The notes: generated from the letters alone by a model not told the origin. A DNA stretch of 64,000 bases from an uncultured Clostridia bacterium (GCA_947630325.1 CANRHB010000001.1:93579-157578), one strand, 5' to 3'; counted from the stretch's first letter, positions 1,965 through 53,796 are shown. A program made the numbers and translations.

Positions 1965-2564
1965 ATGGCTCCTCTTTTTTTGGTGCAAAACCTGTTTTCG
2001 CGCGCTTTTTCACGAAAATGGTGGATGATCTTTTTGATTTTGGCGGTTTTGTGTAGTACTATGTGTGGCATAGTATTTGTTAAGACGCCTGCATTTTACG
2101 AATTCCACCTCAAGCAGTGCGACCGTTTTTTGGACCGCGTATGCTATTCGGACAGAAATGTCTTTCTCATCTTCCTCGAACGAACGGCGGGGAGCGCGCT
2201 TCTCCTGATTCTCGTACTTGTAGGAGGACTGCACCCCGCGCTCCTGCCTCTTCCCGTGCTCGTCCTTTTGTATCGCTCCTACACCTTCGGCGGGGTCCTT
2301 GCCGTACTCTTTTCGGTCTATTCCGTCCCCGGGGCGGTGGTCGCCATTGTCCTGTATCTTCCCATCCATCTCCTTCTCGACGCTCTTTTGCTCCTTGCCG
2401 CGGGTGTCTCCTTTTGGCGCGCATTCTGCTTTTCCTTTTGCGCGGGCGATTGGAAGGAACTTTTGTGCGATTTTCTCTTCCTCCTTGCGCTCCTCGTCCT
2501 CGTGTGCCTTGTTGAAATGATCCTTCTTTTCGCCCTCTTTCACCCGCTCGGTAATCTCCTTTGA
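1965..2564 (+). CDS. spoIIM: stage II sporulation protein M-like membrane protein
   Basis: 199 aa, about 5 TM segments, N-terminal TM then soluble stretch then hydrophobic repeats as in SpoIIM/DUF95; start codon uncertain. Confidence 0.55.
   Translation: MAPLFLVQNLFSRAFSRKWWMIFLILAVLCSTMCGIVFVKTPAFYEFHLKQCDRFLDRVCYSDRNVFLIFLERTAGSALLLILVLVGGLHPALLPLPVLVLLYRSYTFGGVLAVLFSVYSVPGAVVAIVLYLPIHLLLDALLLLAAGVSFWRAFCFSFCAGDWKELLCDFLFLLALLVLVCLVEMILLFALFHPLGNLL
2055..2075. repeat. AT-rich palindrome family copy (AGTACTATG-TGTGG-CATAGTAT), inside CDS
   Basis: 7-bp arms TACTATG/CATAGTA with 5-nt loop; flank TTTTGTGTA matches the copy at 54962. Confidence 0.8.
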
Positions 2565-2603
2565 TAGGTTCATAATTTTCGGCAAACCGCGCAAACTTAG
2601 GGT

Positions 2604-3749
2604 ATGAAAAAATTATGTGTAGCGGCGCTTGCGCTCTCTTTTTTGCTTGCGCCGATGACTTTGAAGGAAAAAACTGTGAAGGCGGAGGAGCTCACCGACT
2701 GCAAAGCCGCCTATCTTTGCGACTTCGGGAGCGGCGTTTGCGCCTATTCCGTCAACGAGACGGAGCGTCTGCCCATTGCGAGCATGTGCAAGATCATGAC
2801 CCTGCTTCTCTGCTTCGAGGCGGTGGACGAGGGCAACCTTTCCTATGACGAGGAGATCGCAGTCGGCGATAACGCGTCGGGCATGGGGGGATCGCAGGTG
2901 TTCCTCGGGAGCGGGCTTTCCTACCGCGCGGAGGAACTCATGAAGACGATCGCGGTGTGCTCGGCAAACGATTCCTGCGTGGCGATGGCGGAGCGGCTTG
3001 CGGGGAGCGAGAGCCTCTTTGTGGAGAAGATGAATTCCCGCGCGAAGGAACTCGGCGCAGACAACACGCTGTTTGCCAACTGCACGGGGCTTCCCAAGGA
3101 GCCGCAGTACTCCTGCGCCAAGGACGTTGCCCTCATGCTCCGCACCCTTCTTTCCCATGAGAAATATTTCGAGTTTTCCAAAGTATGGCTGGAGGACTTC
3201 GCCCATCCCGACGGCCGCACGACGACCATCACCAACACCAACAAACTTATCCGCTTCTATGAGGGGTGCGACGGCGGCAAGACGGGCTTTACGTCTCAGG
3301 CGGGGTTCTGCCTTGCGGCGACCGCAAAGAGGGGAGATACCCGCCTTATTTCCGTCGTCATCGGCGCGGAGAGTTCGGACAAGCGGTTCCAAAGCGTGAA
3401 AAATCTCTTCAACTATGCCTTTGCGGCCTATGAAAGCCGCAAGATCGTGGAGGCAGGCAAGCCTCTTGAAACCAAACTCGACGTGCGCGGCGGCAAACAA
3501 AAGCAGATCTCCGTTTGTGCGGAGCGCGACCTTGCCCTCTTCTGCAAGCGGGGGGAGGAAGTCAACGCCACCGCCGAATTATCGCTCGCAAAGGGGTTAA
3601 AGGCGCCTCTTGAGGAGGGCGCGGAAGTCGGAGAGGCGATCTTATACCGCGACGGCGTGGAAGTTGCGCGTTGCCGACTGCTGACCGCGGAGCCCGCCGA
3701 ACGGTTCGGCTATGGCGACGCCTTCAAAAAGGCCGCGGGAGAATGGTGA
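2604..3749 (+). CDS. D-alanyl-D-alanine carboxypeptidase (peptidase S11, PBP5-type)
   Basis: Signal peptide; SxxK (SMCK), SxN (SAND), KTG (KTGFT) motifs. Confidence 0.9.
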   Translation: MKKLCVAALALSFLLAPMTLKEKTVKAEELTDCKAAYLCDFGSGVCAYSVNETERLPIASMCKIMTLLLCFEAVDEGNLSYDEEIAVGDNASGMGGSQVFLGSGLSYRAEELMKTIAVCSANDSCVAMAERLAGSESLFVEKMNSRAKELGADNTLFANCTGLPKEPQYSCAKDVALMLRTLLSHEKYFEFSKVWLEDFAHPDGRTTTITNTNKLIRFYEGCDGGKTGFTSQAGFCLAATAKRGDTRLISVVIGAESSDKRFQSVKNLFNYAFAAYESRKIVEAGKPLETKLDVRGGKQKQISVCAERDLALFCKRGEEVNATAELSLAKGLKAPLEEGAEVGEAILYRDGVEVARCRLLTAEPAERFGYGDAFKKAAGEW

Positions 3750-5321: not shown

Positions 5322-6041
5322 ATGAGTTTTGATCCCTATAAATTTATCGAATTGTTCGCAAGTTTCTTTGCCGTGACGGCCGTTCTGACCCTTCACGAAT
5401 TTTCGCACGCCTTCGTCGCCTACAAATGCGGCGATCCCACGGCGAAATGGGCGAAGCGGCTCTCCCTCAATCCGCTCAGGCACTTCGATATCGTCGGGCT
5501 CATCTGCTTTACCCTCGTCGGCTTCGGCTGGGCGAAACCCGTGCCGATCAACCCGAACAACTTCAAAAAATACCGCACGGGGCTGGCTCTTACTGCGAGC
5601 GCGGGCGTCATCACCAACTACCTCTCGGCGTTCGTGTTCTATCCGCTCTGCATGGTCGTTCTCTACTACATGCCCTACGTTGCGGTGCTCTCGGAGTTTT
5701 TGAACGATCTCACCTACTATCTGTTCGCATACAGCCTCTCCTTCTGCGTATTCAACCTTTTGCCCTTCTATCCCTTGGACGGCTTCCGCATCGTGGAGGC
5801 GACGAGCAGACGCCACGGCAAAGTCTATCAATTCCTCAGAAAGTACGGCTATTATATCCTGCTCTTCCTCATCATCGAGAGCTTCATCTGCAACATCTTC
5901 GTCCAATTCGGGCAAGGTTACGGCAACTATACGATGGCGATGTGGATGCAGAATTTGAACATTCTCGGCTGGTTCATGCGGTTCGGCACCGACATTTTAG
6001 GCTGGCCCATCTCCGCACTATGGGGGCTCGTGCCATGGTAA
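5322..6041 (+). CDS. site-2 protease family zinc metalloprotease (peptidase M50)
   Basis: HEFSH (HExxH) in TM segment, polytopic membrane protein, LNPLRHFD motif. Confidence 0.85.
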   Translation: MSFDPYKFIELFASFFAVTAVLTLHEFSHAFVAYKCGDPTAKWAKRLSLNPLRHFDIVGLICFTLVGFGWAKPVPINPNNFKKYRTGLALTASAGVITNYLSAFVFYPLCMVVLYYMPYVAVLSEFLNDLTYYLFAYSLSFCVFNLLPFYPLDGFRIVEATSRRHGKVYQFLRKYGYYILLFLIIESFICNIFVQFGQGYGNYTMAMWMQNLNILGWFMRFGTDILGWPISALWGLVPW

Positions 6042-6832
6042 ACCGCGAAAATTTCGAATCGACGGTGGACTACACCACCGTGCTCGACGGCTTCGAGGGC
6101 CCGCTCGATTTACTTCTTTTCCTCATCAACAAGGAGGAAATCGAGATAAAGGACGTCTTTGTCTCGCAGGTCACCGAGCAGTTCCTCGACTATATGAAGG
6201 GGCTCCCTTACCTCGACGTGGACAAGGTGACCGACTACCTCAACATCGCGGCGACCATTCTCAAGATCAAGGCGCAGGCGCTCGTTCCCAACATCGAAGA
6301 GGACCCCGAACTCGACATGGAGATCGAGGAGGACAAGGCACAACTCATCCGCGCGCTCGAGGAATTCCGCCTCATCAAGGAAGAGACGAAAAAACTCAAG
6401 GAGCTCGAGACGATCGGCTACTTTTTCAAGGAGCCAGACAAGAACGTGGGGGAGACCAAGACGGTGTTCTCGCTTGAAAATCTTACCCTCGACGGGCTTG
6501 TCTCCGCCTTTTCCACCCTCATGTTGAAGCGGGAGGAGGAGCGGGTAGCGACCGAAGAGCGGGAGATCCCGCGGGACGAATTCACCGTGGCGCAGAAGGT
6601 CACCGTCATTCTCGAGACGCTCGAGAGCCGCAAGACAGTGGACTTCGAAGAACTATTCACCCGCGACTTCACCCGAAGCGAGATCGTCACCACCTTTCAA
6701 GCGCTCCTCGAACTCTTGAAATACCAATATCTGCACGTCAGGCAGGACGGCGCATTCGGGCACATCTCCATTTCACTCAATCCCGACAGGGGAGAGGAGG
6801 ACTATCTTGGACAAATTGACGAATATAATTGA
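6035..6832 (+). CDS. scpA: segregation and condensation protein A
   Basis: FEGPLDLLLFLINKEEIEIKDV signature; ATG overlaps upstream stop (ATGGTAA); the 5426 start of the tracked ORF is an out-of-gene extension. Confidence 0.9.
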   Translation: MVNRENFESTVDYTTVLDGFEGPLDLLLFLINKEEIEIKDVFVSQVTEQFLDYMKGLPYLDVDKVTDYLNIAATILKIKAQALVPNIEEDPELDMEIEEDKAQLIRALEEFRLIKEETKKLKELETIGYFFKEPDKNVGETKTVFSLENLTLDGLVSAFSTLMLKREEERVATEEREIPRDEFTVAQKVTVILETLESRKTVDFEELFTRDFTRSEIVTTFQALLELLKYQYLHVRQDGAFGHISISLNPDRGEEDYLGQIDEYN

Positions 6833-7481
6833 GGCGATCCTGTTTGCCTCTGGCAAGAGCGTGGAACTTGCCATCATCGCGGAAAAACTCGAAGTCCCCA
6901 TGCGCGAAGTAAAAAAGGCGCTCTCCGAGCTCGAAGAGCGTTACGGGAGCGAGGGGGGACTTCGGCTCCTTCAATTCAACAACAAGGCGCAACTTGCCTC
7001 CAACCCGGACTATAAGACGAGCGTCGAGGCGGTGCTCAACCCCATCCGCGAAAAGGAGCTTACCCGCACTATATTGGAGTGCGCGGCGATCGTTGCCTAC
7101 AAACAGCCCATTACGCGCACGGAGATCGAGATGCTCCGCGGGCTCAACAGCGACTATGCGGTGCACGCCCTCCTCGAACTCAAACTCATCTATCCCTGCG
7201 GGAGGAAGGACGCCGTGGGACGGCCCATTCTCTATGCGACGACGGACGAATTTTTGAAGCGTTTCAAACTCAATTCCCTTGCGGACCTGCCCGACTACGA
7301 CGCGCTCATGGCGGCGATCACCCGTCCCGAAACGGACAGCTACCTCTATGCCCGCGAGGAATACCACGAAGAGGGAGAAGGGGAAGAGGCGGAAGAGGAG
7401 GTCGCAGTCTCCGACGGCGGTTACGAGATCCCCGACTTTTTGCGCGGGCTCGACGAGAGCGATCTCGTAAAAATCAGTTGA
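6807..7481 (+). CDS. scpB: segregation and condensation protein B
   Basis: IIEAILFASGKSV... ScpB signature; TTG start 6 nt after GGAGAGGAGG. Confidence 0.9.
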   Translation: MDKLTNIIEAILFASGKSVELAIIAEKLEVPMREVKKALSELEERYGSEGGLRLLQFNNKAQLASNPDYKTSVEAVLNPIREKELTRTILECAAIVAYKQPITRTEIEMLRGLNSDYAVHALLELKLIYPCGRKDAVGRPILYATTDEFLKRFKLNSLADLPDYDALMAAITRPETDSYLYAREEYHEEGEGEEAEEEVAVSDGGYEIPDFLRGLDESDLVKIS

Positions 7482-7507
7482 CCGGCAAAAAAAATGCGCC
7501 CGATCGG

Positions 7508-7546
7508 TTGTCAACGCATTCAAACTATGTTATAATTTGTTTGAAT
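7508..7546 (+). promoter_or_regulatory. promoter TTGTCA-17-TATAAT bracketed by 8-bp inverted repeat ATTCAAAC/GTTTGAAT
   Basis: -35 at 7508-7513, -10 at 7531-7536; IR arms 7518-7525 and 7539-7546 flank the -10. Confidence 0.6.
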
Positions 7547-7587
7547 AGATCGGCAAGCGCCGACATAAAATACAAAGGAGAGAAAAA

Positions 7588-7941
7588 ATGAAATACTGTC
7601 AGAATTGCGGCACCCAGCTCGACGACAACGCATACGTCTGCCCGACGTGCGGTATGCGCGCTGAGCCCGTCCATGCGCCCGTGCCCACCAGCACCACCAA
7701 CACGTTTGCCATTGTCGGCTTCATCCTCTCTTTCTTCATGCCTCTTCTCGGCCTGATCTTCTCCATCATCGGGCTCAACAAGGTGAAGGAGTGCAACGGC
7801 GGAAAGGGGCTTGCGGTCGCGGGGATCATCATCAGCGCCGTGGAATGGCTGATCGGGATCATCCTCGTCATTGCGATCGTCGCGGGCGGGATCATGATCG
7901 GTTCGCAGGGTCTCTTCATCGCCACCGTCACCGCTGTTTGA
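7588..7941 (+). CDS. zinc-ribbon domain membrane protein (paralog of 9177-9506)
   Basis: MKYCQNCGTQLDDNAYVCPTCG CxxC...CxxC ribbon then 2-3 TM segments; GGAG RBS. Confidence 0.8.
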   Translation: MKYCQNCGTQLDDNAYVCPTCGMRAEPVHAPVPTSTTNTFAIVGFILSFFMPLLGLIFSIIGLNKVKECNGGKGLAVAGIIISAVEWLIGIILVIAIVAGGIMIGSQGLFIATVTAV

Positions 7942-7964
7942 TTTTTATCTGCAATTTGTAAAAG

Positions 7965-7988
7965 CCTGCCGATGCGGCAGGTTTTTTG
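7965..7988 (+). terminator. Rho-independent terminator
   Basis: CCTGCCG-ATG-CGGCAGG then TTTTTTG. Confidence 0.8.
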
Positions 7989-8021
7989 TGTAGACTTTCA
8001 TTTTCCCCCGTAATTCTATTC

Positions 8022-8700
8022 TGTCATTTCGAGCGGAACGAAGTGGAGTCGAGAAATCTCGCCTTATTATAATGCGGTAGAGATTTCTCGACAAGCTCGA
8101 AATGACATTTGAGAATTTCGCCCACCCCCTTAATCCCCCTCCAATGGAGGGGGTTCCGCTTACATGCCCCCTCCTAAGGAAGGGGTAAGAATCACTGTCC
8201 CTTTCGGTGCCCCGCAGAGGGGTTCCGCTTACATGCCCCCTCCTTAGGAGGGGGGTAGGGGGTGGTGTCCTTTGTTCTAATTACATCACCCTGCCCCGCC
8301 CGCACGTTCTATGTTGTCTAAGCGCGGCACGAGGAGCCTGCGACGAAGTACCAAGCCGCTTCTAATTGTCATTTCGAGTGGAGCGAAGCGTAATCGAGAA
8401 ATCTCGCCTTTTTATAATGCGGTAGAGATTTCTCGACAAGCTCGAAATGACATTTGAAATCTCTTGGCTCCCCCTTGAGGGGGAGCTGTCGAGCGAAGCG
8501 AGACTGAGGGGGTGTTTTGTTTCGACGTGCAGACACCCCTTCCGTCACTCGCAAGCTCGTGACACCCACCCCTCAAGGGGTGGGCAAGCCCTTGCTTTCC
8601 CCCTCCGCAGGAGGGGGTTCTGTTTGCCGCTTGCCTGCCCTTTGAGGGGGAGGGAGTTCTCTCTCTCCCTCCCCCAACTTGTTGGGAGGGGGCACAAAAT
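8022..8700. repeat. mosaic palindromic-module cluster A
   Basis: Two 86-nt composite hairpins (8022-8107, 8367-8452) plus M2, M3, M4, M5 modules shared with six other intergenic clusters. Confidence 0.9.
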
Positions 8701-8713
8701 CACCCTGCCGCCT

Positions 8714-9037
8714 TTACCTTTTCGAGGAAAGAAACTCTGCGTAATTCAAAAGTTCCCGCCGAAGCGGCTGGGTGAGAGCGCCATATACTGCAAGGAGTTT
8801 CTGCTCCTCCTCCGTCAGCCGCCCATCAATGCGCACCACGCCAAAGTCGTCCTCTCTTCCGAGCAAATAATCTGCCGAACAGGAAAAACAGTCGGCAAGG
8901 GCGCAGATAAAACCTGCCGTCGGTTCGCTCAATCCCTTCTCCCAATAGTCCACCGACTTCTGACTGCAACCGATTTTTCCCGCCAACGTGCGCTGGCTCA
9001 TATCATTTTCCATTCGCAAAGTTTTAATGCGGTTCAT
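8714..9037 (-). CDS. XRE-family helix-turn-helix transcriptional regulator
   Basis: MSQRTLAGKIGCSQKSVDYWEKGLSEP HTH_3 signature; AAGGGG RBS. Confidence 0.85.
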   Translation of the reverse strand: MNRIKTLRMENDMSQRTLAGKIGCSQKSVDYWEKGLSEPTAGFICALADCFSCSADYLLGREDDFGVVRIDGRLTEEEQKLLAVYGALTQPLRRELLNYAEFLSSKR

Positions 9038-9094
9038 AAAAGAGCCCCTTAATAACTATTTTTCTCAAATTGTAAAAATATTACTCAAATTTAC

Positions 9095-9152: not shown

Positions 9153-9176
9153 AAGAAAAATTTGCGGAGGCGAAAA

Positions 9177-9506
9177 ATGTTTTGCAAAAATTGCGGAAAA
9201 GAAATCGACAACAACGCGTATGTCTGCCCGAATTGCGGAGTAAAGGTGAAAGATGAACTCGCCGAACGCCGGGAACGGCAGGCGGCGACCGATCTCGAAG
9301 CGGATTCGGGTTCCAAGGCAGGGTGGGGGATCCTCTCCTTCCTTATCCCGATCGTAGGGCTCATTCTGTTTCTGATGTGGAAAACCGAGCGTCCCAAGAC
9401 GGCTTCGGTATGCGGAAAATGCGCGCTTGCCGCCGTGATCGTCGAGGTTATCGCTGTGATCATCTATGTAATTATCGCTGTCGCTGTGATCGGCGCACTT
9501 ACTTAA
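9177..9506 (+). CDS. zinc-ribbon domain membrane protein (paralog of 7588-7941)
   Basis: MFCKNCGKEIDNNAYVCPNCG ribbon, C-terminal TM segments; GGAGG 6 nt upstream of ATG 9177 (tracked TTG 9162 unlikely). Confidence 0.8.
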   Translation: MFCKNCGKEIDNNAYVCPNCGVKVKDELAERRERQAATDLEADSGSKAGWGILSFLIPIVGLILFLMWKTERPKTASVCGKCALAAVIVEVIAVIIYVIIAVAVIGALT

Positions 9507-10480: not shown

Positions 10481-11480
10481 ACGGGTTTTGCGCGTACTCT
10501 TGGCGGGTTTTTTGGCGTTTCTTCTCGCTCTTTGCCTAAGTCCCATGGGAATGAGCGGGGCAAATGCCGCAACGCCGAGCGAAGCGGAGTGCGTGATCGA
10601 AGTCTCTTCCCGCCGCTTTCTGCACGAAAAAAACGCCCGCGACTGCCTGCCCATGGCGAGTACCACCAAGATCATGACCGCAATCCTCATCCTCGACGAC
10701 TGCGACCTCAACGCCGAGATCGTCATTCCCAAGGAGGCCGAAGGGGTAGAGGGGTCGAGCGTCTATTTGAAGGCAGGGGAGGTGTACACGGCGGAGGAGC
10801 TTCTGTACGGTCTGATGTTGCGCTCGGGAAACGACTGCGCCGTGGCGCTTGCGCTCTTCCACAGCGGGAGCGTGGAGGCGTTCGCCCGCAAAATGAACGA
10901 AAAAGCGGCGCTTCTCGGCGCAGAGGACACCTTCTTTGTCAACCCGCACGGACTCCCCGCAAAGGGGCACCACACCACCGCAAAAGACTTAGCGATCATT
11001 GCTTCCTATGCAATGGAGAACCAAACTTTTGAAAAAATCGTGTCTACGAAGTACTATGTCAGACATAATTGGCAAAACAAGAACAAAATGTTGTGGAATT
11101 TCGAGGGGGCTTGCGGGGTAAAGACGGGTTTTACCGTCAATGCGGGGCGTTGCCTCGTGACGAGCGCGGAACGGGACGGCATGAAACTCGTCTCCGTTGT
11201 GCTCAATTCTCCTCAAATGTATGAGCGCACGGCGGAGCTCTTGAACGGCGCGTTCGGGAGCTATCACATGGAGACGCTATTCGACTGCGCGGAGCCCATT
11301 GCGGGACTTTCGGCAAAACGGAGTTTTTGTTATCCGCTTAAAGAGGGCGAACGGGATCGCGTCTCTATGAAAGTGAACAAGTGCGACCCTCTCCCCGAGA
11401 CAAAGGGCGATTTTGCGGGGACGATGCAAATCTTCCTCGAAAACAGCTTGCTTTTTTCCCAAAATTTGTATATCATGTAA
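10473..11480 (+). CDS. D-alanyl-D-alanine carboxypeptidase (peptidase S11)
   Basis: Signal peptide MSKRVLRVLLAGFLAF; STTK, SGND, KTGFT motifs; ATG overlaps ytfJ stop. Confidence 0.9.
   Translation: MSKRVLRVLLAGFLAFLLALCLSPMGMSGANAATPSEAECVIEVSSRRFLHEKNARDCLPMASTTKIMTAILILDDCDLNAEIVIPKEAEGVEGSSVYLKAGEVYTAEELLYGLMLRSGNDCAVALALFHSGSVEAFARKMNEKAALLGAEDTFFVNPHGLPAKGHHTTAKDLAIIASYAMENQTFEKIVSTKYYVRHNWQNKNKMLWNFEGACGVKTGFTVNAGRCLVTSAERDGMKLVSVVLNSPQMYERTAELLNGAFGSYHMETLFDCAEPIAGLSAKRSFCYPLKEGERDRVSMKVNKCDPLPETKGDFAGTMQIFLENSLLFSQNLYIM
11051..11069. repeat. AT-rich palindrome family copy (degenerate right arm), inside CDS
   Basis: GTACTATGTCAGACATAAT matches the 19-mer at 13191/15721 in 17 of 19 positions. 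Confidence 0.7.
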
Positions 11481-13188: not shown

Positions 13189-13190
13189 TG

Positions 13191-13209
13191 TACTATGTCA
13201 GACATAGTA
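13191..13209. repeat. AT-rich palindrome TACTATGTC-A-GACATAGTA (perfect 9+9)
   Basis: Lies exactly between the convergent stops at 13188 and 13211; identical 19-mer at 15721. Confidence 0.9.
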
Positions 13210-13210
13210 A

Positions 13211-14443
13211 CTATATCTTGCGGTATTCCCGAAATTGTTGCGCATAGATCGCGGGAATCAAAGCCTCGATCTCCGTGCCGTCGTCGGTATAGTTTACCTT
13301 CTGTTCATAAATCAGCGGGCGGAGCGGGGCGAATTTTCCCTCCATGGTATAGGGAATAAAGAGGATCGCGCGCACAAAATTTTCTTCCAAACTTTGAAAA
13401 ATGCGTTTTTTGAGGGCGTCGAGGCCTCTTTTTTCTTTGGCGGAAATAAACACGGCGTCGCGCGGGGCGTCGGTATTCTGCGCTTCCTCCAAATCACACT
13501 TGTTCATGACGATGAGATAGGGAGAGGAAAAGTACATACCGCGCAAAGTGTCGAGGGTGGTGGTAAGCTGGGTTTGAAAATCTCCCGCCGCATCGCAGAC
13601 AATGAGCGCTAAATCGCAATGCACAGCGCTCTCGAGCGTCGATTTGAACGCTTCGATGAGGTTGTGCGGCAAATTTTGCAAAAATCCGACGGTATCGACG
13701 AGCAAAAATGGGACCCCGTCGATCTCGAATGCCCGCGCGGTGGGGTCGAGTGTCGCAAACAGCGCGTCCTTTGTAAAGACTTCCGCGCCCGTCAGAGCGT
13801 TCAAAAGGGTGGACTTCCCCGTGTTCGTGTAGCCGACGAGGGCAACGGTGATCACCCGCTCCTTCTTTCTGCGCTCCACTTGGAAGGCGCGGCGGCGCTC
13901 CGTCTCTTTGAGTTTTTCTTCCAACGTATGGATGCGCGCACGGATGTGACGGCGGTCGGTCTCGAGTTGGGTTTCCCCGGGACCGCGCGTGCCGATGCCG
14001 CCTCCGAGACGGGAGAGCGCTTCGCCCTTGCCCTTGAGCCGCGGATAGAGATATTTGAGTTGGGCGAGTTCCACCTGTAACTTTCCCTCGCTGCTCTCGG
14101 CGCGCAGAGCGAAAATGTCGAGGATGAGGGTGGTGCGGTCGATGACCTTCTTCCCGTCGAGCGCCTTGGAAATGTTGAGCGTTTGGGAAGGGGAGAGTTC
14201 TCCGTTGAAGAGCACGGTGAGTTCCAAACCGTCGAGCCGCTCCCGGAGTTCCTCCAATTTTCCTTCGCCGATGTAGGTGGCCGGGTTGACTTCGCGCACG
14301 TTCTGGTAGATGGTGCCCGCGTATTCCGCGCCCGCGCTCTCGATGAGCGCCACCGCCTCGCCGTGCAAAATTTTATAATTTTCTCCCTCGATCGGTTGGA
14401 TAATATACACGATCTCGGGCTTTTTTGCCAGATTATTCGTCAT
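13211..14443 (-). CDS. hflX: GTPase HflX
   Basis: GYTNTGKSTLLNALTG (G1), DTVGF (G3), NKCD (G4), HflX N-terminal domain. Confidence 0.92.
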   Translation of the reverse strand: MTNNLAKKPEIVYIIQPIEGENYKILHGEAVALIESAGAEYAGTIYQNVREVNPATYIGEGKLEELRERLDGLELTVLFNGELSPSQTLNISKALDGKKVIDRTTLILDIFALRAESSEGKLQVELAQLKYLYPRLKGKGEALSRLGGGIGTRGPGETQLETDRRHIRARIHTLEEKLKETERRRAFQVERRKKERVITVALVGYTNTGKSTLLNALTGAEVFTKDALFATLDPTARAFEIDGVPFLLVDTVGFLQNLPHNLIEAFKSTLESAVHCDLALIVCDAAGDFQTQLTTTLDTLRGMYFSSPYLIVMNKCDLEEAQNTDAPRDAVFISAKEKRGLDALKKRIFQSLEENFVRAILFIPYTMEGKFAPLRPLIYEQKVNYTDDGTEIEALIPAIYAQQFREYRKI

Positions 14444-15491
14444 TTTCTTCCTTTTTATGCAATTTTACAGCATTGGCGACCGAGCGGCGGTGGTCCTCTG
14501 TGATCGCCGCATAGTGCTTCCGTGTCGTGTTCACGTCCTTGTGCCCGAGCACGTCCGCCACAATATAGATGTCGCCCGTCTCGCGGTAGAGGCTTGTGCC
14601 ATAGGTGGAGCGCAGTTTGTGCGGCGTGATTTTTTTGAGAGGGGAGACGATTTGTGCGTACTTTTTGACGAGATTTTCGACCGCGCGCACGGTGATCCGA
14701 CGGTATTGCATGGAGAGAAAGAGGGCATGTTCGTCCTTCGGGACCCGCTTATCCTCCTGTTTTTGGGCGATATAGGTGGCAAGCGCGTCGCCGACCTCCT
14801 CCGAAAAGTACAAAATCGCCTTGTTGCCGCCCTTGCGGGTGACCAAAAAAGAGTTGTCGGTGAAGTTGATGCTCTCGTTGTTGAGCCCGACGAGCTCCGA
14901 AATACGGATGCCCGTGCCCAAAAAGAGGGTCAGGATCGCCGTGTCGCGGACTTTCGTCTTTTCATGGTAACCGTCGGCGTGATGGGGGAGGCCGCTCCCG
15001 TCCTCGGCAACGTCCAAGATCGCCGAAACTTCGTCGCGTTCGAGGCGGATGATCTCTTTTTCGTGAAGTTTTGGCGTGGAGACCTTGGAGGTGTTGTTGA
15101 CTTCGATGAGCCCCTTGTTGAAAAAGTATTTGAAGAGGGAACGGACGGTGGACAGCTTGCGCGCCTTGGCACGCTCGTTGCAGGACAGCCGTTTTTCGCC
15201 ATAAGTATAATTGGAGAGATAACTCAAAAAGATTTCCATGTCGGTGTCGGTGACTTGCTCGAGATCTTCGAGGGTAATATCGCACACCGCCTTGCCGCGG
15301 AATTTTTTCTTGGAGAGGAAGTCGAAGAAAATGCGCAAGTCGTAGCAGTAGTTGAGCCGCGTCAAAACGCTCGTGCGGTTCTCGACGCCGCGCAGGAAAT
15401 CTTCGCAGAAGGCGGGCAGTTCCGCAAGAAGTTCGTCAATGCGGTCGAGATTTTTGAGATTTCGTTCCTGATAGTAGTCATCCGTTTTCAT
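14433..15491 (-). CDS. tyrosine recombinase, XerC/XerD family
   Basis: HKLRSTYGTSLY and LGHKDVNTTRKHY catalytic motifs; overlaps hflX start by 11 nt (operon); start 15491 preferred. Confidence 0.8.
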   Translation of the reverse strand: MKTDDYYQERNLKNLDRIDELLAELPAFCEDFLRGVENRTSVLTRLNYCYDLRIFFDFLSKKKFRGKAVCDITLEDLEQVTDTDMEIFLSYLSNYTYGEKRLSCNERAKARKLSTVRSLFKYFFNKGLIEVNNTSKVSTPKLHEKEIIRLERDEVSAILDVAEDGSGLPHHADGYHEKTKVRDTAILTLFLGTGIRISELVGLNNESINFTDNSFLVTRKGGNKAILYFSEEVGDALATYIAQKQEDKRVPKDEHALFLSMQYRRITVRAVENLVKKYAQIVSPLKKITPHKLRSTYGTSLYRETGDIYIVADVLGHKDVNTTRKHYAAITEDHRRSVANAVKLHKKEENDE

Positions 15492-15497
15492 GGCAAC

Positions 15498-15506
15498 ATT
15501 ATAGCA
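15498..15506 (-). promoter_or_regulatory. extended -10 (TGcTATAAT) 6 nt upstream of ATG 15491: leaderless candidate
   Basis: Minus strand reads TGCTATAAT GTTGCC ATG; no SD before either candidate ATG. Confidence 0.4.
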
Positions 15507-15720
15507 CATCGGGGGAGAGATGTCAATTTTACGAATAGTTAAAAGAAAAATTTTGTGTCCCGCCCTATGGGGGGAGAGGAAAAAACCACCCGACCGACAT
15601 CTATAACTATTCGCAAAACCTCAGTTTTACGAATAGATAGGGGTATTTTGACGGGTTTTGACCAGAATATATGCCGTTTTTGCGTCCGACTGCCAACCGA
15701 CGCATTTTTTCGGAGAAAAG

Positions 15721-15757
15721 TACTATGTCAGACATAGTATCTATGCGTGACATAGTA
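15721..15757. repeat. two tandem AT-rich palindromes
   Basis: TACTATGTCAGACATAGTA (15721-15739) then TCTATG-CGTGA-CATAGTA (15740-15757), directly after the GH13 stop. Confidence 0.9.
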
Positions 15758-27165: not shown

Positions 27166-27643
27166 TCCCTTGCCCACTCCTTGAGGGGTGGGTGGCACGC
27201 GCTCTGCGCGTGACGGAAGGGGTGTTTGCGTCATAAGGAACGACACCCCCTCAGTCTCGGCTGGCGCCTTGACAGCTCCCCCTCAAGGGGCAGCCAAGCG
27301 GGAAAGCACCTTTAACGGAACCCCCTCCGTGGGAGGGGTTCCGTTTTCTTACCCCCTCCGTGGGAGGGGGGTAGGGGGGTGGGGCGTGTTCTTTTTTGTC
27401 ATTTCCCCCCGCGCCGCGACATTCCGAGCCACTGTTCTTAATCTGTCATTTCGCCCCGCGCATTCTTTTATTGTCATTTCGCCCCGCGCGCAGTTCTGAT
27501 TCTCTAAGGGCGGCACGAGGAGCTTGCGACGAAGTACCAAGCCGCTTCAAATTGTCATTTCGAGTGGAGCGAAGCGGAATCGAGAAATCTCGCCTTATTT
27601 ATTATAATGCGGTAGAGATGTCTCCACTTCGGTCGATATGACA
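27166..27643. repeat. mosaic palindromic-module cluster B
   Basis: M3, M4 (reverse), two M2 hairpins, three TGTCATTTC(G/C)CCCCGC arms, M5, one composite hairpin (27553-27643). Confidence 0.9.
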
Positions 27644-27670
27644 TTTTGAAAGTGCGAACGTTTATAACCC

Positions 27671-36687: not shown

Positions 36688-36788
36688 TGTCATTTCGACC
36701 AAGCGAAGCGCGTGGAGAAATCTCGCCTTGCTATAATGCGGTAGAGCTTTCTCCTTCGCCCTTCCCCACTCCTCAAGGGGTGGGCAAG
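36688..36788. repeat. mosaic palindromic-module cluster C
   Basis: One M1 half-element with the GCTATAATGCGGTAGAG loop sequence plus an M3 hairpin CCCACTCCTCAAGGGGTGGG. Confidence 0.85.
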
Positions 36789-36805
36789 AGGTCAATTTAT
36801 GCAAA

Positions 36806-40114: not shown

Positions 40115-40388
40115 TGTCATTTCGAGTTTGTCGCCCCGCCCGCACGTTCCAAATCTTTCTAAATTGTCATTTCGAGCTTGTCGAGAAATCTCTACCTTAG
40201 TTCTCAAAATGTCATTCCGAGCGCAGTCGAGGAATCTCTACCGCATTATAATAATGTGAGATTTCTCCACGCGCCGCAAAGCGGCTTGGTCGAAATGACA
40301 ATTAGAACAGCGTTCTTTAATGGCATGTCGCCCCGCCCGCACGTTCCAAATTGTCATGTCGAGCGCAGTCGAGACATCTCTACCGCAT
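40115..40388. repeat. mosaic palindromic-module cluster D (inside the decarboxylase operon)
   Basis: Six M1 arms (TGTCATTTCGAG, TGTCATTCCGAG, TGTCATGTCGAG, reverse TCGAAATGACA) with the ATTATAATAATG loop. Confidence 0.9.
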
Positions 40389-40400
40389 TTTTCTTCTGCT

Positions 40401-43885: not shown

Positions 43886-44690
43886 AACCCCCTCCATTGG
43901 AGGGGGACTAAGGGGGTGGGCATACTCGCCTCCCCTCGCAACGCTTAGCCCCCTTGGCGCCCCTTATAGGTGGAGTTAAGAAAAGCAGTTGCGAAACCCC
44001 CTCCATTGAGGTGGAGTGCCCAAACAGAACCCCCTCCATTGGAGGGGGACTAAGGGGGTGGGCATTCGTCGCCTCCCCTCGCAACGCTTAGCCCCCTTGG
44101 CACCCCTTATAGGGGAGCTGTCGAGCGGAGCGAGACTGAGGGGTTCTCCGAGGGCCTAAGGGTTTGTGTACTCGTCGCCTCCCCTCCCCGCTCCGCGAGG
44201 GACAGCAAGGGTGAGACCTGCCCCCTTTTAAGGGGGCGGGTGGCGCGAAGCGCCAGGTGGGGGTTACAATGTTCTCTTGCCCACCCCTTGAGGGGTGGGT
44301 GGCACGCGCTCTGCGCGTGACGGAAGGGGTGTCTGCAATTTGAAAAGAACACCCCCCTCAGTCATTCGCAAGCTCGTGGAGACATCTCTACCTTAGTTCT
44401 AAAATTGTCATGTCGAGCGAAGTCGAGACATCTCTACCGCACGCCGTTCTTAAAATGTCATGTCGAGCGAAGTCGAGACATCTCTACCGCACGCCGTTCT
44501 TAAATTGTCATGTCGACCGAAGTGGAGACATCTCTACCGCATTATAATAAGGCGAGATTTCTCCACGCGCCGCATAGCGGCTTGGTACTTCGTCGCAGGC
44601 TCCTCGTGCCGCGCTTAGAGAATCAGAACGGCGCGCGGGGCGAAATGACAAAACATAAAGCGGGGCGAAATGACTTATTGGAAACACGCC
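43886..44690. repeat. mosaic palindromic-module cluster E (largest)
   Basis: ~88-bp direct repeat 43886-43972 / 44029-44116, M2, M3, M4 modules, three tandem ~50-bp M1 units (44402-44555), reverse M5. Confidence 0.9.
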
Positions 44691-44695
44691 CACCC

Positions 44696-44797
44696 CCCTA
44701 TCCTTTCCGCACTTTTCCCCCTACTCTCCTATTTCCATACAACGTCTTTTTGCGGGAGCCCTCTTTCCTTTCGATTCCCCTCTGACCCATACACAAA
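44696..44797. repeat. ~101-bp pyrimidine-rich repeat, copy X1
   Basis: About 93% identical by eye to 44911-45011. Confidence 0.85.
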
Positions 44798-44867
44798 GCC
44801 CCCGACCTGCGCAAGGGCTCCCAAAATATTGCAAGATTTTTTTTGGAAAATGCGGTTTGCGGCGACG

Positions 44868-44886
44868 TGGCAGGGGAGACGCGACT
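44868..44886 (-). other. 19-bp copy of the tRNA-Trp 3' end (att-like fragment)
   Basis: TGGCAGGGGAGACGCGACT identical to 45043-45061 (T-loop end, acceptor 3' strand, CCA). Confidence 0.85.
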
Positions 44887-44910
44887 TTATCCCACAAAAA
44901 GACGCTTTCG

Positions 44911-45011
44911 CCCTATCCTTTCCGCACTTCTCCCCTACTCTCCTATTCCCATGCAACGTCTTTTTGCGGGAGCCCTCTTCTCTTTCGATTCCCCTCTGAC
45001 CCATACGCAAA
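44911..45011. repeat. ~101-bp pyrimidine-rich repeat, copy X2
   Basis: Directly downstream of the tRNA-Trp terminator; matches X1. Confidence 0.85.
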
Positions 45012-45041
45012 ACGCCCAACCTGTTTTACAGGTTGGGCGTT
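45008..45041 (-). terminator. tRNA-Trp terminator
   Basis: 12-bp stem ACGCCCAACCTG/CAGGTTGGGCGT, loop TTTTA, T4 on the minus strand. Confidence 0.8.
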
Positions 45042-45042
45042 T

Positions 45043-45117
45043 TGGCAGGGGAGACGCGACTCGAACACGCAACAGACGGTTTTGGAGACCGTTGCTCTAC
45101 CATTGAACTACTCCCCT
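45043..45117 (-). tRNA. trnW: tRNA-Trp (anticodon CCA), CCA-encoded
   Basis: Manual cloverleaf: acceptor AGGGGAG/CTCCCCT, anticodon stem ACGGT/ACCGT, loop CTCCAAA, T-loop TTCGAGT, 75 nt. Confidence 0.9.
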
Positions 45118-45468: not shown

Positions 45469-47400
45469 TCATGCGCCCAGCTCCTTCCATGCGCTCCACG
45501 AGCCCGACGAATAGACGCGCACGCACACCGAACGGTCCGTTTTGCCCGAGACGGCAAGCTGTGCGCGGTAAGAGTTGTCCGACGAGGACGCCGAGAACAC
45601 GAACCAAACGCAGCTGGACCCGGAAACGTTGTCCACCGAGACGGGGAAGTGGGTGCAGACGTGGGAGGAAGAACCCACCACGCAGAACATGCCGTTCTGC
45701 ATCTCGTTGAAATCGGTGGGCGGGTCGAAATTGAGCGGGAACTGCCTGTCGTCGGTCAGCCCGCCGAGCCCGAGGGTCTGCTTGTCCAGAGTGACGTCGC
45801 CCGTCTTGCCGTTGACGCTCGTGACCCCCGTCGTGAGCGACGTTGCGATGACGACATTGTTCGAACCGTCCCTCGTCACGGAGATGTTCGCCCCCGCTTT
45901 CACGGCGTCCGCACCGAGTTTTGCCCCCGTGACCGCACCGTCGGCGATCTTTTCCTCCGTAACGGCGTCCTTTGCCAGCTTTTTGTTGCCCACGGCAGAC
46001 CCCGAAATATGGTCGCTGAGGATGCTGCCGAAGCGGATCTCCCCGCTCCCCACGCACTGTGCGTCCAAATCGCCGCGCGCGACGGTGTCCTTTGTGGCAA
46101 GCGCGCCGAGCCCGAGGGTGGAGGCAGAAATCGTCACCTCTCCCGTCTGTCCGTTGACGGAAGTCACGCCGCCCGAGCCTCCCTCGGGTTTGTCTTTCAA
46201 ATCGTTGTAACTTCCGCTCGTGGCGACCTTGGCAAGCCCCATGAGGTCGGCCGTCAGAATGACGTTCCCCGTCTGCCCGTTGACGGACAGCACGCCCGAC
46301 TCGGGCGCGTCCACAAGGTCGAGGAAGCTCCCCGAGACCGCCACGTCGGCAAGTCCGAGCGAATCTTTGTCGATCCAAACCTTTCCCGTCTGGCCGTTGA
46401 CCGAATAGACGCCCGTATCGGGGGCGCCGATGAGGTCGCGGTAATTTCCGCTGTAAGCGATGTCCGCAAGCCCGAGGAAGTCCTGGTCGACGATGACGTC
46501 CCCCCTCTCGCCGTTCACGGAGAACACGACGTCCTTTGCGGAAACGGCAAGATCGCCGCCTGCGTCGCGCGCAACGGAAATGTGCTCGCCCGCTTTCACT
46601 GCGCCGTCCGCAAGTTTCTTGCCCGTGACCGCGCCGTCCGCGATGCTCTGCGTTCCAACGCACCCCGCGCCGAGGTCGCCCTGCGCCACCGTGTCCTTTT
46701 TGGCGAGTTTCCCGAGCGTGACGGTGACGTCCTGCGTGCCGTCATAACTCTGGTCCCCGATCTTGAGGGTGTGCCCGAGGGAGCCGCCCGATGCCGAAAG
46801 TTTGAGTTCTTCGAGCTTTTCGCCGTCGAAATAATGAGGAACATAGACGCCGTCCTGCAAGCGGAAGAAGATGCCGCCGGGCGCGAGTTCTTCGGAGGGC
46901 TGCCCAGCTTGATCCTTGCTGACCTCGATGATCTTCATCCCCTCGGTGACGAGCCCCTTCTTGTTGACCCTGACAGCCGAGTAGATCCCCTCCGCGACCT
47001 TATCCGCAAAGATCTCCCAATCCTTTTCATTGAGGAAGGAGAGCACCTGCTCGTGAAGGGAAGCGGAGGGCTTGGGCCGGGGGAATCCGCCCGCGCCCGC
47101 TTCACAGCGCAGACGCACAAAGGAAGAGGCGATCCGCTCTGTGCCGAGCCTGCTGTACACGCCGATGAGCACGCTGTCCGCGTCCAAAGATGTGATCTGC
47201 GGCATTTCGCACTCCGTGCCTGTAAACAGCTTCTCCGCGGCGCCGCCCGCCCACATCACCACGGCAACGCGGGAGGGATAATTGTTCCACTCTTCGTCGA
47301 AGGCGAACTTCAGGCGGTACACGCTGTTAAAAGAAACGACCTCCGAAAAGGTCGTTTCCGCGATCTTGTTTTTGACCGAAATTGCAATTTCTTGGTTCAA
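45469..47400 (-). CDS. phage tail-fibre-like protein with knob-like C-terminus
   Basis: Five SVNG(Q/K/E)(T/R)G(x)V repeats, SGSYNDLKDKP-type tail-fibre repeats, C-terminal W-rich knob; TTG 47400 sits 9 nt after GGAGG. Confidence 0.75.
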   Translation of the reverse strand: MNQEIAISVKNKIAETTFSEVVSFNSVYRLKFAFDEEWNNYPSRVAVVMWAGGAAEKLFTGTECEMPQITSLDADSVLIGVYSRLGTERIASSFVRLRCEAGAGGFPRPKPSASLHEQVLSFLNEKDWEIFADKVAEGIYSAVRVNKKGLVTEGMKIIEVSKDQAGQPSEELAPGGIFFRLQDGVYVPHYFDGEKLEELKLSASGGSLGHTLKIGDQSYDGTQDVTVTLGKLAKKDTVAQGDLGAGCVGTQSIADGAVTGKKLADGAVKAGEHISVARDAGGDLAVSAKDVVFSVNGERGDVIVDQDFLGLADIAYSGNYRDLIGAPDTGVYSVNGQTGKVWIDKDSLGLADVAVSGSFLDLVDAPESGVLSVNGQTGNVILTADLMGLAKVATSGSYNDLKDKPEGGSGGVTSVNGQTGEVTISASTLGLGALATKDTVARGDLDAQCVGSGEIRFGSILSDHISGSAVGNKKLAKDAVTEEKIADGAVTGAKLGADAVKAGANISVTRDGSNNVVIATSLTTGVTSVNGKTGDVTLDKQTLGLGGLTDDRQFPLNFDPPTDFNEMQNGMFCVVGSSSHVCTHFPVSVDNVSGSSCVWFVFSASSSDNSYRAQLAVSGKTDRSVCVRVYSSGSWSAWKELGA

Positions 47401-47433
47401 TGAAAAAATCCTCCATATGGAATTTGTACTTCC

Positions 47434-47439
47434 ATTATA
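47434..47439 (-). promoter_or_regulatory. candidate -10 (TATAAT) for the tail-fibre-like gene
   Basis: Minus strand TTGTATAATGG between the purB terminator and the RBS; -35 poor. Confidence 0.35.
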
Positions 47440-47474
47440 CAATACAAATTGCCACTTTGGGGGGGATAGGTGCC

Positions 47475-47503
47475 AAAAAACCGCGGAATTTCCGCGGTTT
47501 TTT
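47475..47503 (-). terminator. purB terminator
   Basis: CCGCGGA-ATT-TCCGCGG flanked by A6 and T6; lies inside the tracked ORF extension 47401-47520. Confidence 0.8.
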
Positions 47504-47508
47504 ACAAT

Positions 47509-47529
47509 TATGTCTGACATAGTACTATG
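47509..47529. repeat. AT-rich palindrome family copy
   Basis: TATGTC-T-GACATA plus CATAGTACTATG (perfect 12-bp palindrome), 24 nt after the purB stop. Confidence 0.8.
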
Positions 47530-51292: not shown

Positions 51293-51341
51293 AGATAGGA
51301 ATCAAAGCGGCTGAGCCGCAAACATAAATCGGAGGTAACTC

Positions 51342-51626
51342 ATGAATATCAAACCCTTATTCGACAAAGTCGTCGTGGAGGCGCTCACCGTCGAAGAAAA
51401 GACGAAGAGCGGCTTTATTCTCCCCTCTTCGGCACAGGAAAAGCCCCAGACATGCGTGGTTGTAGCGGTCGGCCCCGGCGGGATCGTGGACGGCAAGGAG
51501 ACCGTGATGCAGGTGAAAGTCGGCGACAAGGTGCTCTGCTCCAAGTACGCGGGGAGCGACTTTAAGGTAGACGGCAAGGAATTCACCATCATCAAACAGA
51601 GCGACATTTTGGCGATCGTGGAATAA
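51342..51626 (+). CDS. groES: co-chaperonin GroES
   Basis: MNIKPLFDKVVV...GFILPSSAQEKPQ...VGDKVLCSKYAG. Confidence 0.95.
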   Translation: MNIKPLFDKVVVEALTVEEKTKSGFILPSSAQEKPQTCVVVAVGPGGIVDGKETVMQVKVGDKVLCSKYAGSDFKVDGKEFTIIKQSDILAIVE

Positions 51627-51640
51627 AAGAATTCCGCACT

Positions 51641-51940
51641 CTCCCCTTGGCGCCCCTGTAGGGGAGCTGTCGCGCCCCGCGCGACTGAGGGGTTCTCGTA
51701 AAACCCTTTCCCCCGCTTCGCGGGTACTTTCCCTAAAAGGGACAGCAAGGGGCAAGCAAAACCCCCTCCTCGGGAGGAGGATCAAGGGGGTGGGCAAACA
51801 CTTGGCGTGAACACGCCACTCCGAACCACCCGCACTTGGCGCCCCTGTAGGGGAGCTGTCGCGCCCCGCGCGACTGAGGGGTTCTCATAAAACCCTTTCC
51901 CCCGCTTCGTGGGTACTTTCCCCAAAAGGGACAGCAAGCC
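51641..51940. repeat. mosaic palindromic-module cluster F (inside the groES-groEL spacer)
   Basis: Two ~100-bp M4-type units (51647-51746, 51835-51935) separated by M2 hairpin CCCCCTCCTCGGGAGGAGG. Confidence 0.9.
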
Positions 51941-53680: not shown

Positions 53681-53693
53681 AGAACGCAAAAAA

Positions 53694-53796
53694 CTTGGCG
53701 CCCCTTGCAGGGGAGCTGTCACGAGCTTGCGAGTGACTGAGGGGTTTTCGGAGAACCACCCGCTTCGCGGGTACTTTCCCTTATCGGGACAGCAAG
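53694..53796. repeat. mosaic palindromic-module cluster G (single M4-type unit)
   Basis: CTTGGCGCCCCTTGCAGGGGAGCTGTC...GACTGAGGGG...CCCGCTTCGCGGG...GGGACAGCAAG, same layout as the cluster F units. Confidence 0.9.

Follow-up and report, generated by a model that had tools for sequence, protein, structure and literature searches.

Here, we analysed a 64,000-nt stretch of DNA from an uncultured Clostridia bacterium (GCA_947630325.1, CANRHB010000001.1:93579-157578), hereafter called the window, in which seven intergenic tracts, the first of them at 8022-8700, are assembled from short palindromic modules designated M1 to M5. We conclude that these tracts are probably clusters of the kind known as bacterial interspersed mosaic elements (BIMEs), made up of non-coding, non-autonomous and selfish repeats of the repetitive extragenic palindrome (REP)/REPIN class that are mobilised in trans. 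The conclusion is based on copy numbers far above chance, covarying stems, polymorphism between close relatives, no coding and no target-site duplications. An earlier sequence-only reading of the window had likened the tracts to BIME/REP mosaics, and in this regard it was borne out: the modules are non-coding palindromes that are found singly, paired as doublets or in arrays, in either orientation, within non-divergent intergenic regions. They map to no catalogued insertion sequence (IS) or miniature inverted-repeat transposable element (MITE) with target-site duplications, the alternative named in that reading.

Organisation of the tracts

Self-BLAST of the window recovered all seven tracts where they had been noted, namely at 8022-8588 (tract 1, the hairpins of which run on to about 8700), 27169-27656 (tract 2), 36688-36790 (tract 3), 40129-40389 (tract 4), 43886-44809 (tract 5), 51643-51938 (tract 6) and 53693-53796 (tract 7). 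Their combined length of about 2.74 kb (4.3% of the window) is in line with the first estimate of about 2.7 kb or about 4%. An independent metagenome contig from the ENA (L001) is 99.95% identical to the window over 12 kb, covers tracts 6 and 7 and shows zero differences inside the repeats, indicating that the tracts are not assembly artefacts. All five modules proposed from the sequence are present, but the idea of one shared module set forming a single family had to be given up, as the modules belong to two unrelated families, here termed A (M1 and M5) and B (M2, M3 and M4). Three open reading frames (ORFs) overlapping the tracts had been regarded as spurious and were found to be so: ORF 8447-9052 runs antisense to a real helix-turn-helix (HTH) gene at 8714-9037 (minus strand), ORF 51302-51797 runs antisense to groES and ORF 44107-44352 consists entirely of repeat sequence.

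Family A

Units of family A are composed of a TGTC tag, a 5-bp stem opening with AT, an interior with a mini-hairpin of the GCGAAG type, a return stem and a final CTC; the M1 half-unit can be written as TGTC-AT-xy-C-GAG...GAG-y'x'-AT-CTC. At least 20 M1 arms had been counted before, and a search with TGTCATKTCG (up to one mismatch) gave 24 matches, 21 of them in the tracts, compared to 8.0 ± 2.6 in shuffled sequences. The variable stems found in the window are TTTC/GAAA, TGTC/GACA and TTCC/GGAA. Covariation was tested in metagenomes using a search pattern with both variable positions left free (four K x M combinations): the variable pair was G-C in 66 matches, T-A in 67 and mismatched in a single one. 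In the generalised form GTC-AT-xy-C ... G-y'x'-AT-C, which comprises five stem types, the two sides are complementary in 196 of 201 copies.

M1 occurs as single units, in tandem arrays with a 50-nt period (a triplet at 44406-44534) and in inverted doublets whose tags face outward (8022-8107, 8367-8452, 27553-27643 and 40210-40300). The doublet at 8022-8107 has outward heads TGTCATTTCGAG..., inner arms GAGAAATCTC and GAGATTTCTC and the spacer TTATTATAATGCGGTA; its DNA fold reaches -25.4 kcal/mol (z = -7.1). M5 was confirmed in three copies (none expected by chance), at 8317-8360 (plus strand, adjoining the doublet at 8367-8452), at 27503-27546 (plus strand) and reversed at 44577-44619 (minus strand). 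It always stands next to M1, as part of a composite of about 200 nt comprising a head-only M1, M5 and an M1 doublet (27444-27643). This composite is 92-93% identical (92% over 158 nt) to a copy at a non-orthologous locus (L127) in another Clostridia metagenome-assembled genome (MAG), which points to a recently shared family.

Three head-only variants of M1 (TGTCATTTCGCCCCGC...GTTC) lie at 27397-27500 (plus strand) and a degenerate unit at 36688-36750 (plus strand). Tract 4 is an M1 array at 40115-40388 (plus strand) with heads at 40115, 40165, 40321 and 40352, flanked on either side by genes of a decarboxylase cluster that run in the same direction, and its doublet at 40210-40300 carries a truncated remnant of M5. 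In tract 5, the three tandem M1 singles with the 50-nt period are followed by an inner doublet arm (44406-44563, plus strand), and two head-only variants are found at 44627-44675 (minus strand). A TATAAT in the M1 spacer was considered as a promoter and rejected: the lone copy reading TTGTCG-17-TATAAT points off the genes, and the other copies have no -35 element.

Family B

An arm of family B consists of a C-run/G-run hairpin, a variable GTC...GAC hairpin and a G-run, and two diverged arms face each other to form a long hairpin of 105-130 nt. M4 has the layout GCTCCCC-loop-GGGGAGC, T, GTC-stem-loop-stem-GAC, TGAGGGG. M3 follows the same plan in other letters (CCCACCCC-loop-GGGGTGGG, TGG, CAC-stem...GTG, ACGGAAGGGG) and always stands opposite an M4 arm, giving a long hairpin of about 130 nt (8463-8590 and 27169-27300). 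In tracts 6 and 7, the 105-nt units share the design of the M4/M3 doublet, but their second arm has diverged further. M2 is simply a hairpin of a C-run and a G-run, followed in some copies by a weak T-rich tail.

The copy numbers given for these modules largely held. M2 amounts to seven perfect CCCCTCC-N3-GGAGGGG hairpins plus three to four degenerate ones read directly from the sequence, matching the approximately 10 copies noted earlier. The six copies of M4 comprise four exact ones with an 11-nt insert and two with longer inserts (53695, plus strand; 27244, minus strand), where none is expected by chance, and all six are matched by a covariance model with E <= 1.6e-8. For M3, four hairpins were found, but the 32-nt extension reported for three places is exact only at 27194 and 44301; the third place (8530-8564, minus strand) carries a different inner hairpin instead.

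The M4 covariance model was built from 12 copies and yielded 270 matches in the 945 kb searched. In the resulting alignment, which was fitted to the model itself, 98.8% of the cells are paired, 8 of 13 pairs show double changes and none of 500 shuffles reached an equal value. Both M4 helices covary. An independent count of the inner hairpin, made on 58 distinct sequences, gave Watson-Crick pairs in 47-54 of the 58 at each position. In the loops, GNA triloops with a closing C-G pair prevail (e.g. GCGAAGC), a type of triloop known to form exceptionally stable mini-hairpins in DNA. G-T and A-C mismatches are about equally frequent in these hairpins, i.e. no strand asymmetry is apparent.

In tract 1, three M2 hairpins (8135-8153, 8167-8185 and 8236-8254) lie within a direct repeat of about 69 nt (GGGGTTCCGCTTACATGCCCCCTCC). 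They are followed by the M4/M3 inverted doublet at 8463-8590 with the M4 arm at 8464-8514 (plus strand) and the M3 arm at 8534-8587 (minus strand), for which we obtained 79% complementarity between the arms, a DNA fold of -37.9 kcal/mol (z = -4.7) and covariance-model matches with E = 7e-12 and 1e-3. Hairpins of the M2 type, with C-run and G-run, follow at 8599-8617 and at 8646-8675, with a partner at 8685-8692. The M3/M4 inverted doublet of tract 2 (27169-27300) has its M3 arm at 27173-27225 (plus strand) and its M4 arm at 27244-27297 (minus strand); next to it, two M2 hairpins (27322-27338 and 27353-27369) and a GGGGGTGGGG tail occupy 27321-27386. Tract 3 holds an M3-type hairpin, CCCACTCCTCAAGGGGTGGG, at 36765-36784. 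Tract 5 starts with a duplicated segment (43886-44066) containing M2 hairpins at 43888-43906 and 44030-44048 and a GGGGGTGGGCA tail, and continues on the plus strand with an M4 double-hairpin arm (44097-44146; covariance-model E = 2.5e-10), a divergent double-hairpin arm related to M4 (44217-44266; E = 6e-4) and an M3 arm with the exact 32-nt extension (44280-44332). Tract 6, in the spacer between groES and groEL, comprises a 105-nt doublet unit at 51646-51749 (plus strand; M4 arm 51647-51695, diverged inverted arm 51701-51745), a degenerate M2 hairpin with a GGGGGTGGGCA tail at 51762-51797 and a second 105-nt doublet unit at 51835-51938 (plus strand), which is 97% identical to the first. As RNA, the first unit folds with -57.2 kcal/mol (z = -3.5). 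Tract 7 is a further 105-nt doublet unit at 53693-53796 (plus strand), downstream of the groEL terminator.

Could the doublets of both families be classical MITEs, i.e. internally deleted insertion sequences of the DDE type with terminal inverted repeats, which are moved by a related full-length IS? The ends of the M1 doublets are inverted over 13-26 nt and start with TG...CA, the arms of the M4/M3 doublets are about 28 nt long and 79% complementary, and with 86-130 nt all doublets lie within the size range of MITEs. Against this stand the lack of direct target-site duplications at M1 doublets (inspected by eye in the window and in about 40 metagenomic copies) and the occurrence of half-units alone and in head-to-tail arrays. 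In addition, the stems covary within an arm, which is unexpected for sequences that only bind a transposase, and across 1.98 Mb of loci we saw no IS bounded by these ends. We consider an origin of the doublets as MITEs very unlikely.

Placement of the tracts and turnover among relatives

Tracts are present in three of four convergent and in four of about 45 co-directional intergenic regions but in none of three divergent ones (Fisher p = 0.006), a preference for convergent gene ends and an avoidance of divergent promoter regions. Two of the co-directional tracts appear to lie inside operons, in the groESL spacer and in the decarboxylase gene cluster (tract 4). Relative to the flanking genes, modules are found in both orientations, in the map of the window as well as in the analysis of viral loci; the latter gave no strong orientation bias to genes, with crude ORF calls that placed more than half of the copies in probably spurious ORFs.

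The position of tracts at gene ends might suggest that terminating or attenuating transcription is the primary role of the hairpins, which then became duplicated. M2, which combines a GC stem of 8 bp with a T-rich tail, indeed scores as terminator-like on both strands, and some copies qualify weakly as intrinsic terminators. M1, M3, M4 and M5 are, however, devoid of T-tracts, and the number of terminator-like sites does not exceed the shuffled expectation. Canonical terminators with T-tracts already stand beside tracts 1, 2 and 7, indicating that the modules are not the primary terminators there. Moreover, two 105-nt units and an M2-like hairpin are located between groES and groEL, two genes which must be co-expressed. 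As an explanation for the tracts, a terminator function is thus extremely unlikely.

The groES-groEL spacer was compared among close relatives, with GroEL identities given relative to the window. It measures 18 nt in L130 (GroEL 95% identical), 88 nt in L132 (94%), 275 nt in L258 (97%), 316 nt in L257 (98%), 356 nt in the window, 596 nt in L129 (97%) and 628 nt in L256 (99%), where the module content is a different one. The repeat content of the spacer varies by genome, and some relatives carry CGTC-tagged units or units resembling M2 and M3/M4. Since the spacer of one relative (L130) is empty at 18 nt, the elements must be dispensable. L256 and the window are colinear with about 91% nucleotide identity up to the tract borders: the alignment ends exactly at the groES stop codon and restarts 57 nt before groEL. 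At the site orthologous to tract 7, L256 has kept the outer hairpins of the unit, and both inner hairpins are swapped for different, still palindromic sequences, a replacement that fits either gene conversion between copies or selection preserving the structure.

Further repeats were seen around groESL in these relatives. The spacers of L257 and L258 contain CGTCACCCTGAGCCTGTCGAAGGGTGACG palindromes, three tandem repeat units of about 190 nt downstream of groEL are included in L129 11850-12570, and additional intergenic repeat families occur in sister genomes, e.g. at 6470-7100 in L130. The whole clade appears to be rich in repeats. In L257, type I restriction-modification genes (Methylase_S, N6_Mtase; 5732-8891) lie directly downstream of groEL, and the gene found downstream of groEL in the window follows them at 8942; the surroundings of groESL hence vary both in their genes and in their repeats.

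Occurrence beyond the window

The modules are not confined to the window but occur in another Clostridia MAG, viral contigs, metagenomes and named plasmids. The M4 core with 21 fixed flanking bases was found in at least 120 viral stretches of IMG/VR among the matches listed, in nine GenBank phage records from human faeces and in named plasmids of Deinococcus (three), Rhizobium (two) and Vescimonas fastidiosa. Read directly, the plasmid copies have the same architecture as M4 of the window, with covariance scores of 51 bits (Deinococcus), 41 bits (Vescimonas) and 34 bits (Rhizobium). For the M1 half-unit, matches came from more than 120 stretches of metagenomes (soil in many cases) and from five viral stretches. 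M5 has a narrow range: a scan of a genome collection found its core in one related MAG, and none was found in viral contigs. Neither the M1 doublet nor the M1-M5 composite gave a match in plasmid records. The M4/M3 doublet is also present in an unrelated gut contig (L042). The cores of M4 and M1 are thus not lineage-specific and are found across phyla and environments.

Comparable mosaic tracts were noted in other gut Clostridia, at 2940-3500 of L128 (Vescimonas fastidiosa) and at 2750-3050 and 4770-4990 of L042. They combine the M4/M3 doublet with a TGTCATTGCGA...GGCAATC unit and a GTAG-tagged REP (GTAGGGGCGGAC...GTCCGCCC), and L042 additionally contains runs of a GCCGAAT heptamer. A literature search for REPs in gut Clostridia returned nothing relevant, and one using sequence strings of the modules returned eukaryotic noise only.

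Comparison with known systems

Are the modules a named element? According to the sequence-only reading they are not, a statement that holds for M4 (see below) and has to be revised for M1, which fits most features of the CGTC/TGTC-tagged REP superfamily described by Di Nocera, De Gregorio and Rocco in 2013 (PMC3733652). This superfamily includes dRS3 of Neisseria and was reported from five phyla, Firmicutes not included; its members form heterodimers, are placed convergently or co-directionally to genes, build mosaic clusters in Neisseria and comprise CGTC-tagged REPs without a dedicated transposase (PMC3733652). Likewise, the 21 M1 heads in the tracts start with TGTCAT including an unpaired tag, the equivalents of M1 in L256 start with CGTCAT, and the M1 stem opens with A-T pairs (complementary in the 196 of 201 copies mentioned above). 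Inverted dimers often formed with unlike partners, convergent and co-directional placement, mosaic clustering and the lack of a linked transposase add to the resemblance, and the short unpaired 3' tail of M1 may correspond as well. M1 differs in its shorter stem (5 bp versus 8-9 bp), in an interior of 12-30 nt with a mini-hairpin instead of a 4-5-nt loop and in its tail, which reads CTC rather than CCA. Read from the other strand, M3 has the inner hairpin CGT-[CACGCGC AGA GCGCGTG]-CCA.

With the REP/BIME/REPIN repeats of enterobacteria and pseudomonads, the modules have in common that they are short extragenic palindromes, form inverted doublets that yield one long hairpin, assemble into mosaic clusters, cause no target duplication and are tolerated inside operons. 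In contrast to those REPs that are mobilised by REP-associated tyrosine transposases (RAYTs), their sequences are unrelated, no GTAG-hairpin repeat exists anywhere in the window and no RAYT was found within 64 kb of the host genome. The M4/M3 arms further deviate from REPs and REPINs in being double hairpins flanked by G-runs and not single hairpins.

M4 also resembles whalefall-1 (RF01762), which was described as a free-standing non-coding RNA (ncRNA) restricted to a whale-fall metagenome (Weinberg et al. 2010; PMC2864571). In both, a hairpin CUCYCC...GGRGAG is joined through a short linker to a further, variable hairpin and a G-rich tail, whereas M4 is a dispersed repeat. The whalefall-1 score, 15.6 bits on the M4 copy of a viral contig (L013), stays below the gathering threshold of 37, and the tracts of the window gave no match at E <= 5. 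No Rfam family was found at gathering thresholds (window and 13 loci) or in E-value scans (four tracts), in which matches to BjrC68 and BjrC80 were weak leads. Modular intergenic repeats with sub-modules in varying order are also known from Streptococcus pneumoniae as BOX, the modules of which are AT-richer, lineage-specific and not G-run double hairpins. The small noncoding repeats (SNRs) of Deinococcus radiodurans are likewise modular intergenic repeats with few sub-modules in varying order (PMC1978522); compared by description only, these mosaic SNRs share the modular assembly with our tracts. Arrays of clustered regularly interspaced short palindromic repeats (CRISPR) were dismissed because unique spacers are missing, ToxI-like arrays because a toxin gene is missing; attC sites, ribozymes and tRNA or rRNA fragments were considered and rejected.

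The likeness to whalefall-1, classed by its authors as an RNA with certainty, raises the question of whether the modules, above all M4 and M3, are selected structured RNAs: either stabilisers or processing sites acting in cis on mRNA or ncRNAs of the whalefall-1 type, their repetition reflecting the reuse of a functional cassette. The strong covariation of both M4 helices would fit such a function, as would the conservation of the 21-nt M4 flanks across phyla, the location of elements in transcribed spacers such as groES-groEL and the orthologous unit in L256, which keeps its hairpins despite replaced sequence. However, the elements occur in both orientations to flanking genes without a consistent gene association, G-U and A-C mismatches show no strand asymmetry and GNA triloops are a hallmark of stable hairpins in DNA, not in RNA. 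Furthermore, the content turns over completely between genomes that are about 91% identical, the spacer of L130 is empty at 18 nt and no Rfam family reaches its threshold. Taken together, the structured, non-coding, repeated and polymorphic nature of elements that lack target duplications, the two orientations, the missing asymmetry between G-T and A-C and the GNA triloops favour a hairpin-dependent spread at the level of DNA, like that of REPs and REPINs, over a strand-specific function of RNA, and we regard the structured-RNA explanation as unlikely.

Proposed mechanism and the mobilising enzyme

For the preferred reading, i.e. REP-like repeats mobilised in trans, we propose that the modules spread as hairpins of single-stranded DNA without target duplication, by the action of a trans-acting enzyme that would be encoded elsewhere. 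A transposase of the HUH/Y1 type, similar to RAYTs or TIRYTs (tyrosine transposases associated with terminal inverted repeats), is the leading candidate. Insertion preferentially in or beside existing hairpins, combined with homogenisation by gene conversion, would give rise to the mosaics. After insertion, the modules are presumably co-transcribed, and protection of mRNA 3' ends by their stable RNA hairpins may be an incidental effect; M2 may weakly terminate transcription.

Consistent with the earlier statement that no transposase or RAYT gene lies in the window, a comparison of about 40 of its ORFs with Pfam found none. Several observations weigh against mobilisation in trans. A tblastn search of 1.98 Mb of loci with IS200, IS608 and RAYT queries returned one Y1 gene (L153), which is flanked by hairpins of its own that differ from the modules of the window. 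The copies counted for the host genome are those of the 64-kb window, and the Deinococcus plasmids carry M4 once per record and not as a high-copy repeat. Finally, the strong covariation and the 21-nt M4 flanks kept across phyla could reflect a selected function of RNA or DNA. The recovery of a single, unrelated Y1 gene agrees with the report on CGTC-tagged REPs that lack a dedicated transposase (PMC3733652).

The Y1 gene itself is located on a soil-metagenome contig (L153, 2199-2808). This IS200-like transposase gene (2269-2808, minus strand) is flanked by inverted CCCAGCGTT(T/A)AAACGCTGGG hairpins in a REPtron-like arrangement and lies 1.3 kb from an M1 unit, to which it is unrelated.

Gene setting and further observations

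With a G+C content of about 55% and housekeeping functions only in the Pfam analysis, the window represents an ordinary chromosomal stretch. Its genes include those for ScpA/B, LexA, HflX, a Xer-like tyrosine recombinase, a glycogen operon, HtpG, IspH-S1, Cmk, an oxaloacetate-decarboxylase-type gene cluster, RNase H, GroES/GroEL, MatE and FtsZ. Tract 1 is located between a gene for a zinc-ribbon small membrane protein (7588-7941) and the HTH regulator gene at 8714-9037; a paralogue of the former (9162-9506) stands on the other side of the HTH gene, and one of the two paralogues has a weak DUF4190 match under the Pfam cut-off.

Outside the module family, a direct repeat of 120-134 nt (44690-44809 and 44911-45044) is found near an intact tRNA-Trp gene (45043-45117, minus strand). 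It brackets a 19-nt copy of the tRNA-Trp 3' end, TGGCAGGGGAGACGCGACT, at 44868-44886. This arrangement (44690-45117) looks like a small duplication or a scar of integration and excision unrelated to the modules. A 20-nt palindrome, GTACTATGTCAGACATAGTAC, occurs four times in the window (11050-11071, 13190-13214, 15720-15744 and 47505-47526), three times upstream of minus-strand genes (lexA region, Xer-like recombinase and ORF 45469-47520), with a close variant downstream of groEL in L129 (around 11890); it may be an operator for a regulator. The cumulative GC skew rises until about 21 kb and declines thereafter, and gene orientation changes from plus to minus near 12 kb. This switch (12-21 kb) is near the Xer-like recombinase gene (14433-15509, minus strand) and ScpA/B, and the window may span the replication terminus.

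Implications

Our results suggest that gut Clostridia known only from MAGs carry dense and fast-evolving clusters of REP-like repeats, which enlarge intergenic regions, generate spurious ORFs and probably break assemblies. The range of 18-628 nt for the groES-groEL spacer among close relatives demonstrates the repeat load tolerated by an essential operon and makes the repeats sensitive markers for strains and species.

The one truly unusual aspect is the conservation of the M4 double hairpin across phyla. REPs are normally lineage-specific, while M4 keeps its 21-nt flank across at least three phyla and its inner stem covaries freely, which bears on how tagged REPs propagate without a dedicated transposase. 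But why should gut Clostridia, their phages, Deinococcus and Rhizobium share such a sequence? One explanation, bold and in our view rather unlikely, is that the M4 double hairpin is a single element in all of them, kept alike in both sequence and structure and recognised by a trans-acting machinery. If true, such a machinery would explain how the RAYT-less tagged REPs of the CGTC class are made and spread. Alternatively, M4 could reveal a widespread structured signal of single-stranded DNA or RNA with a function for the host.

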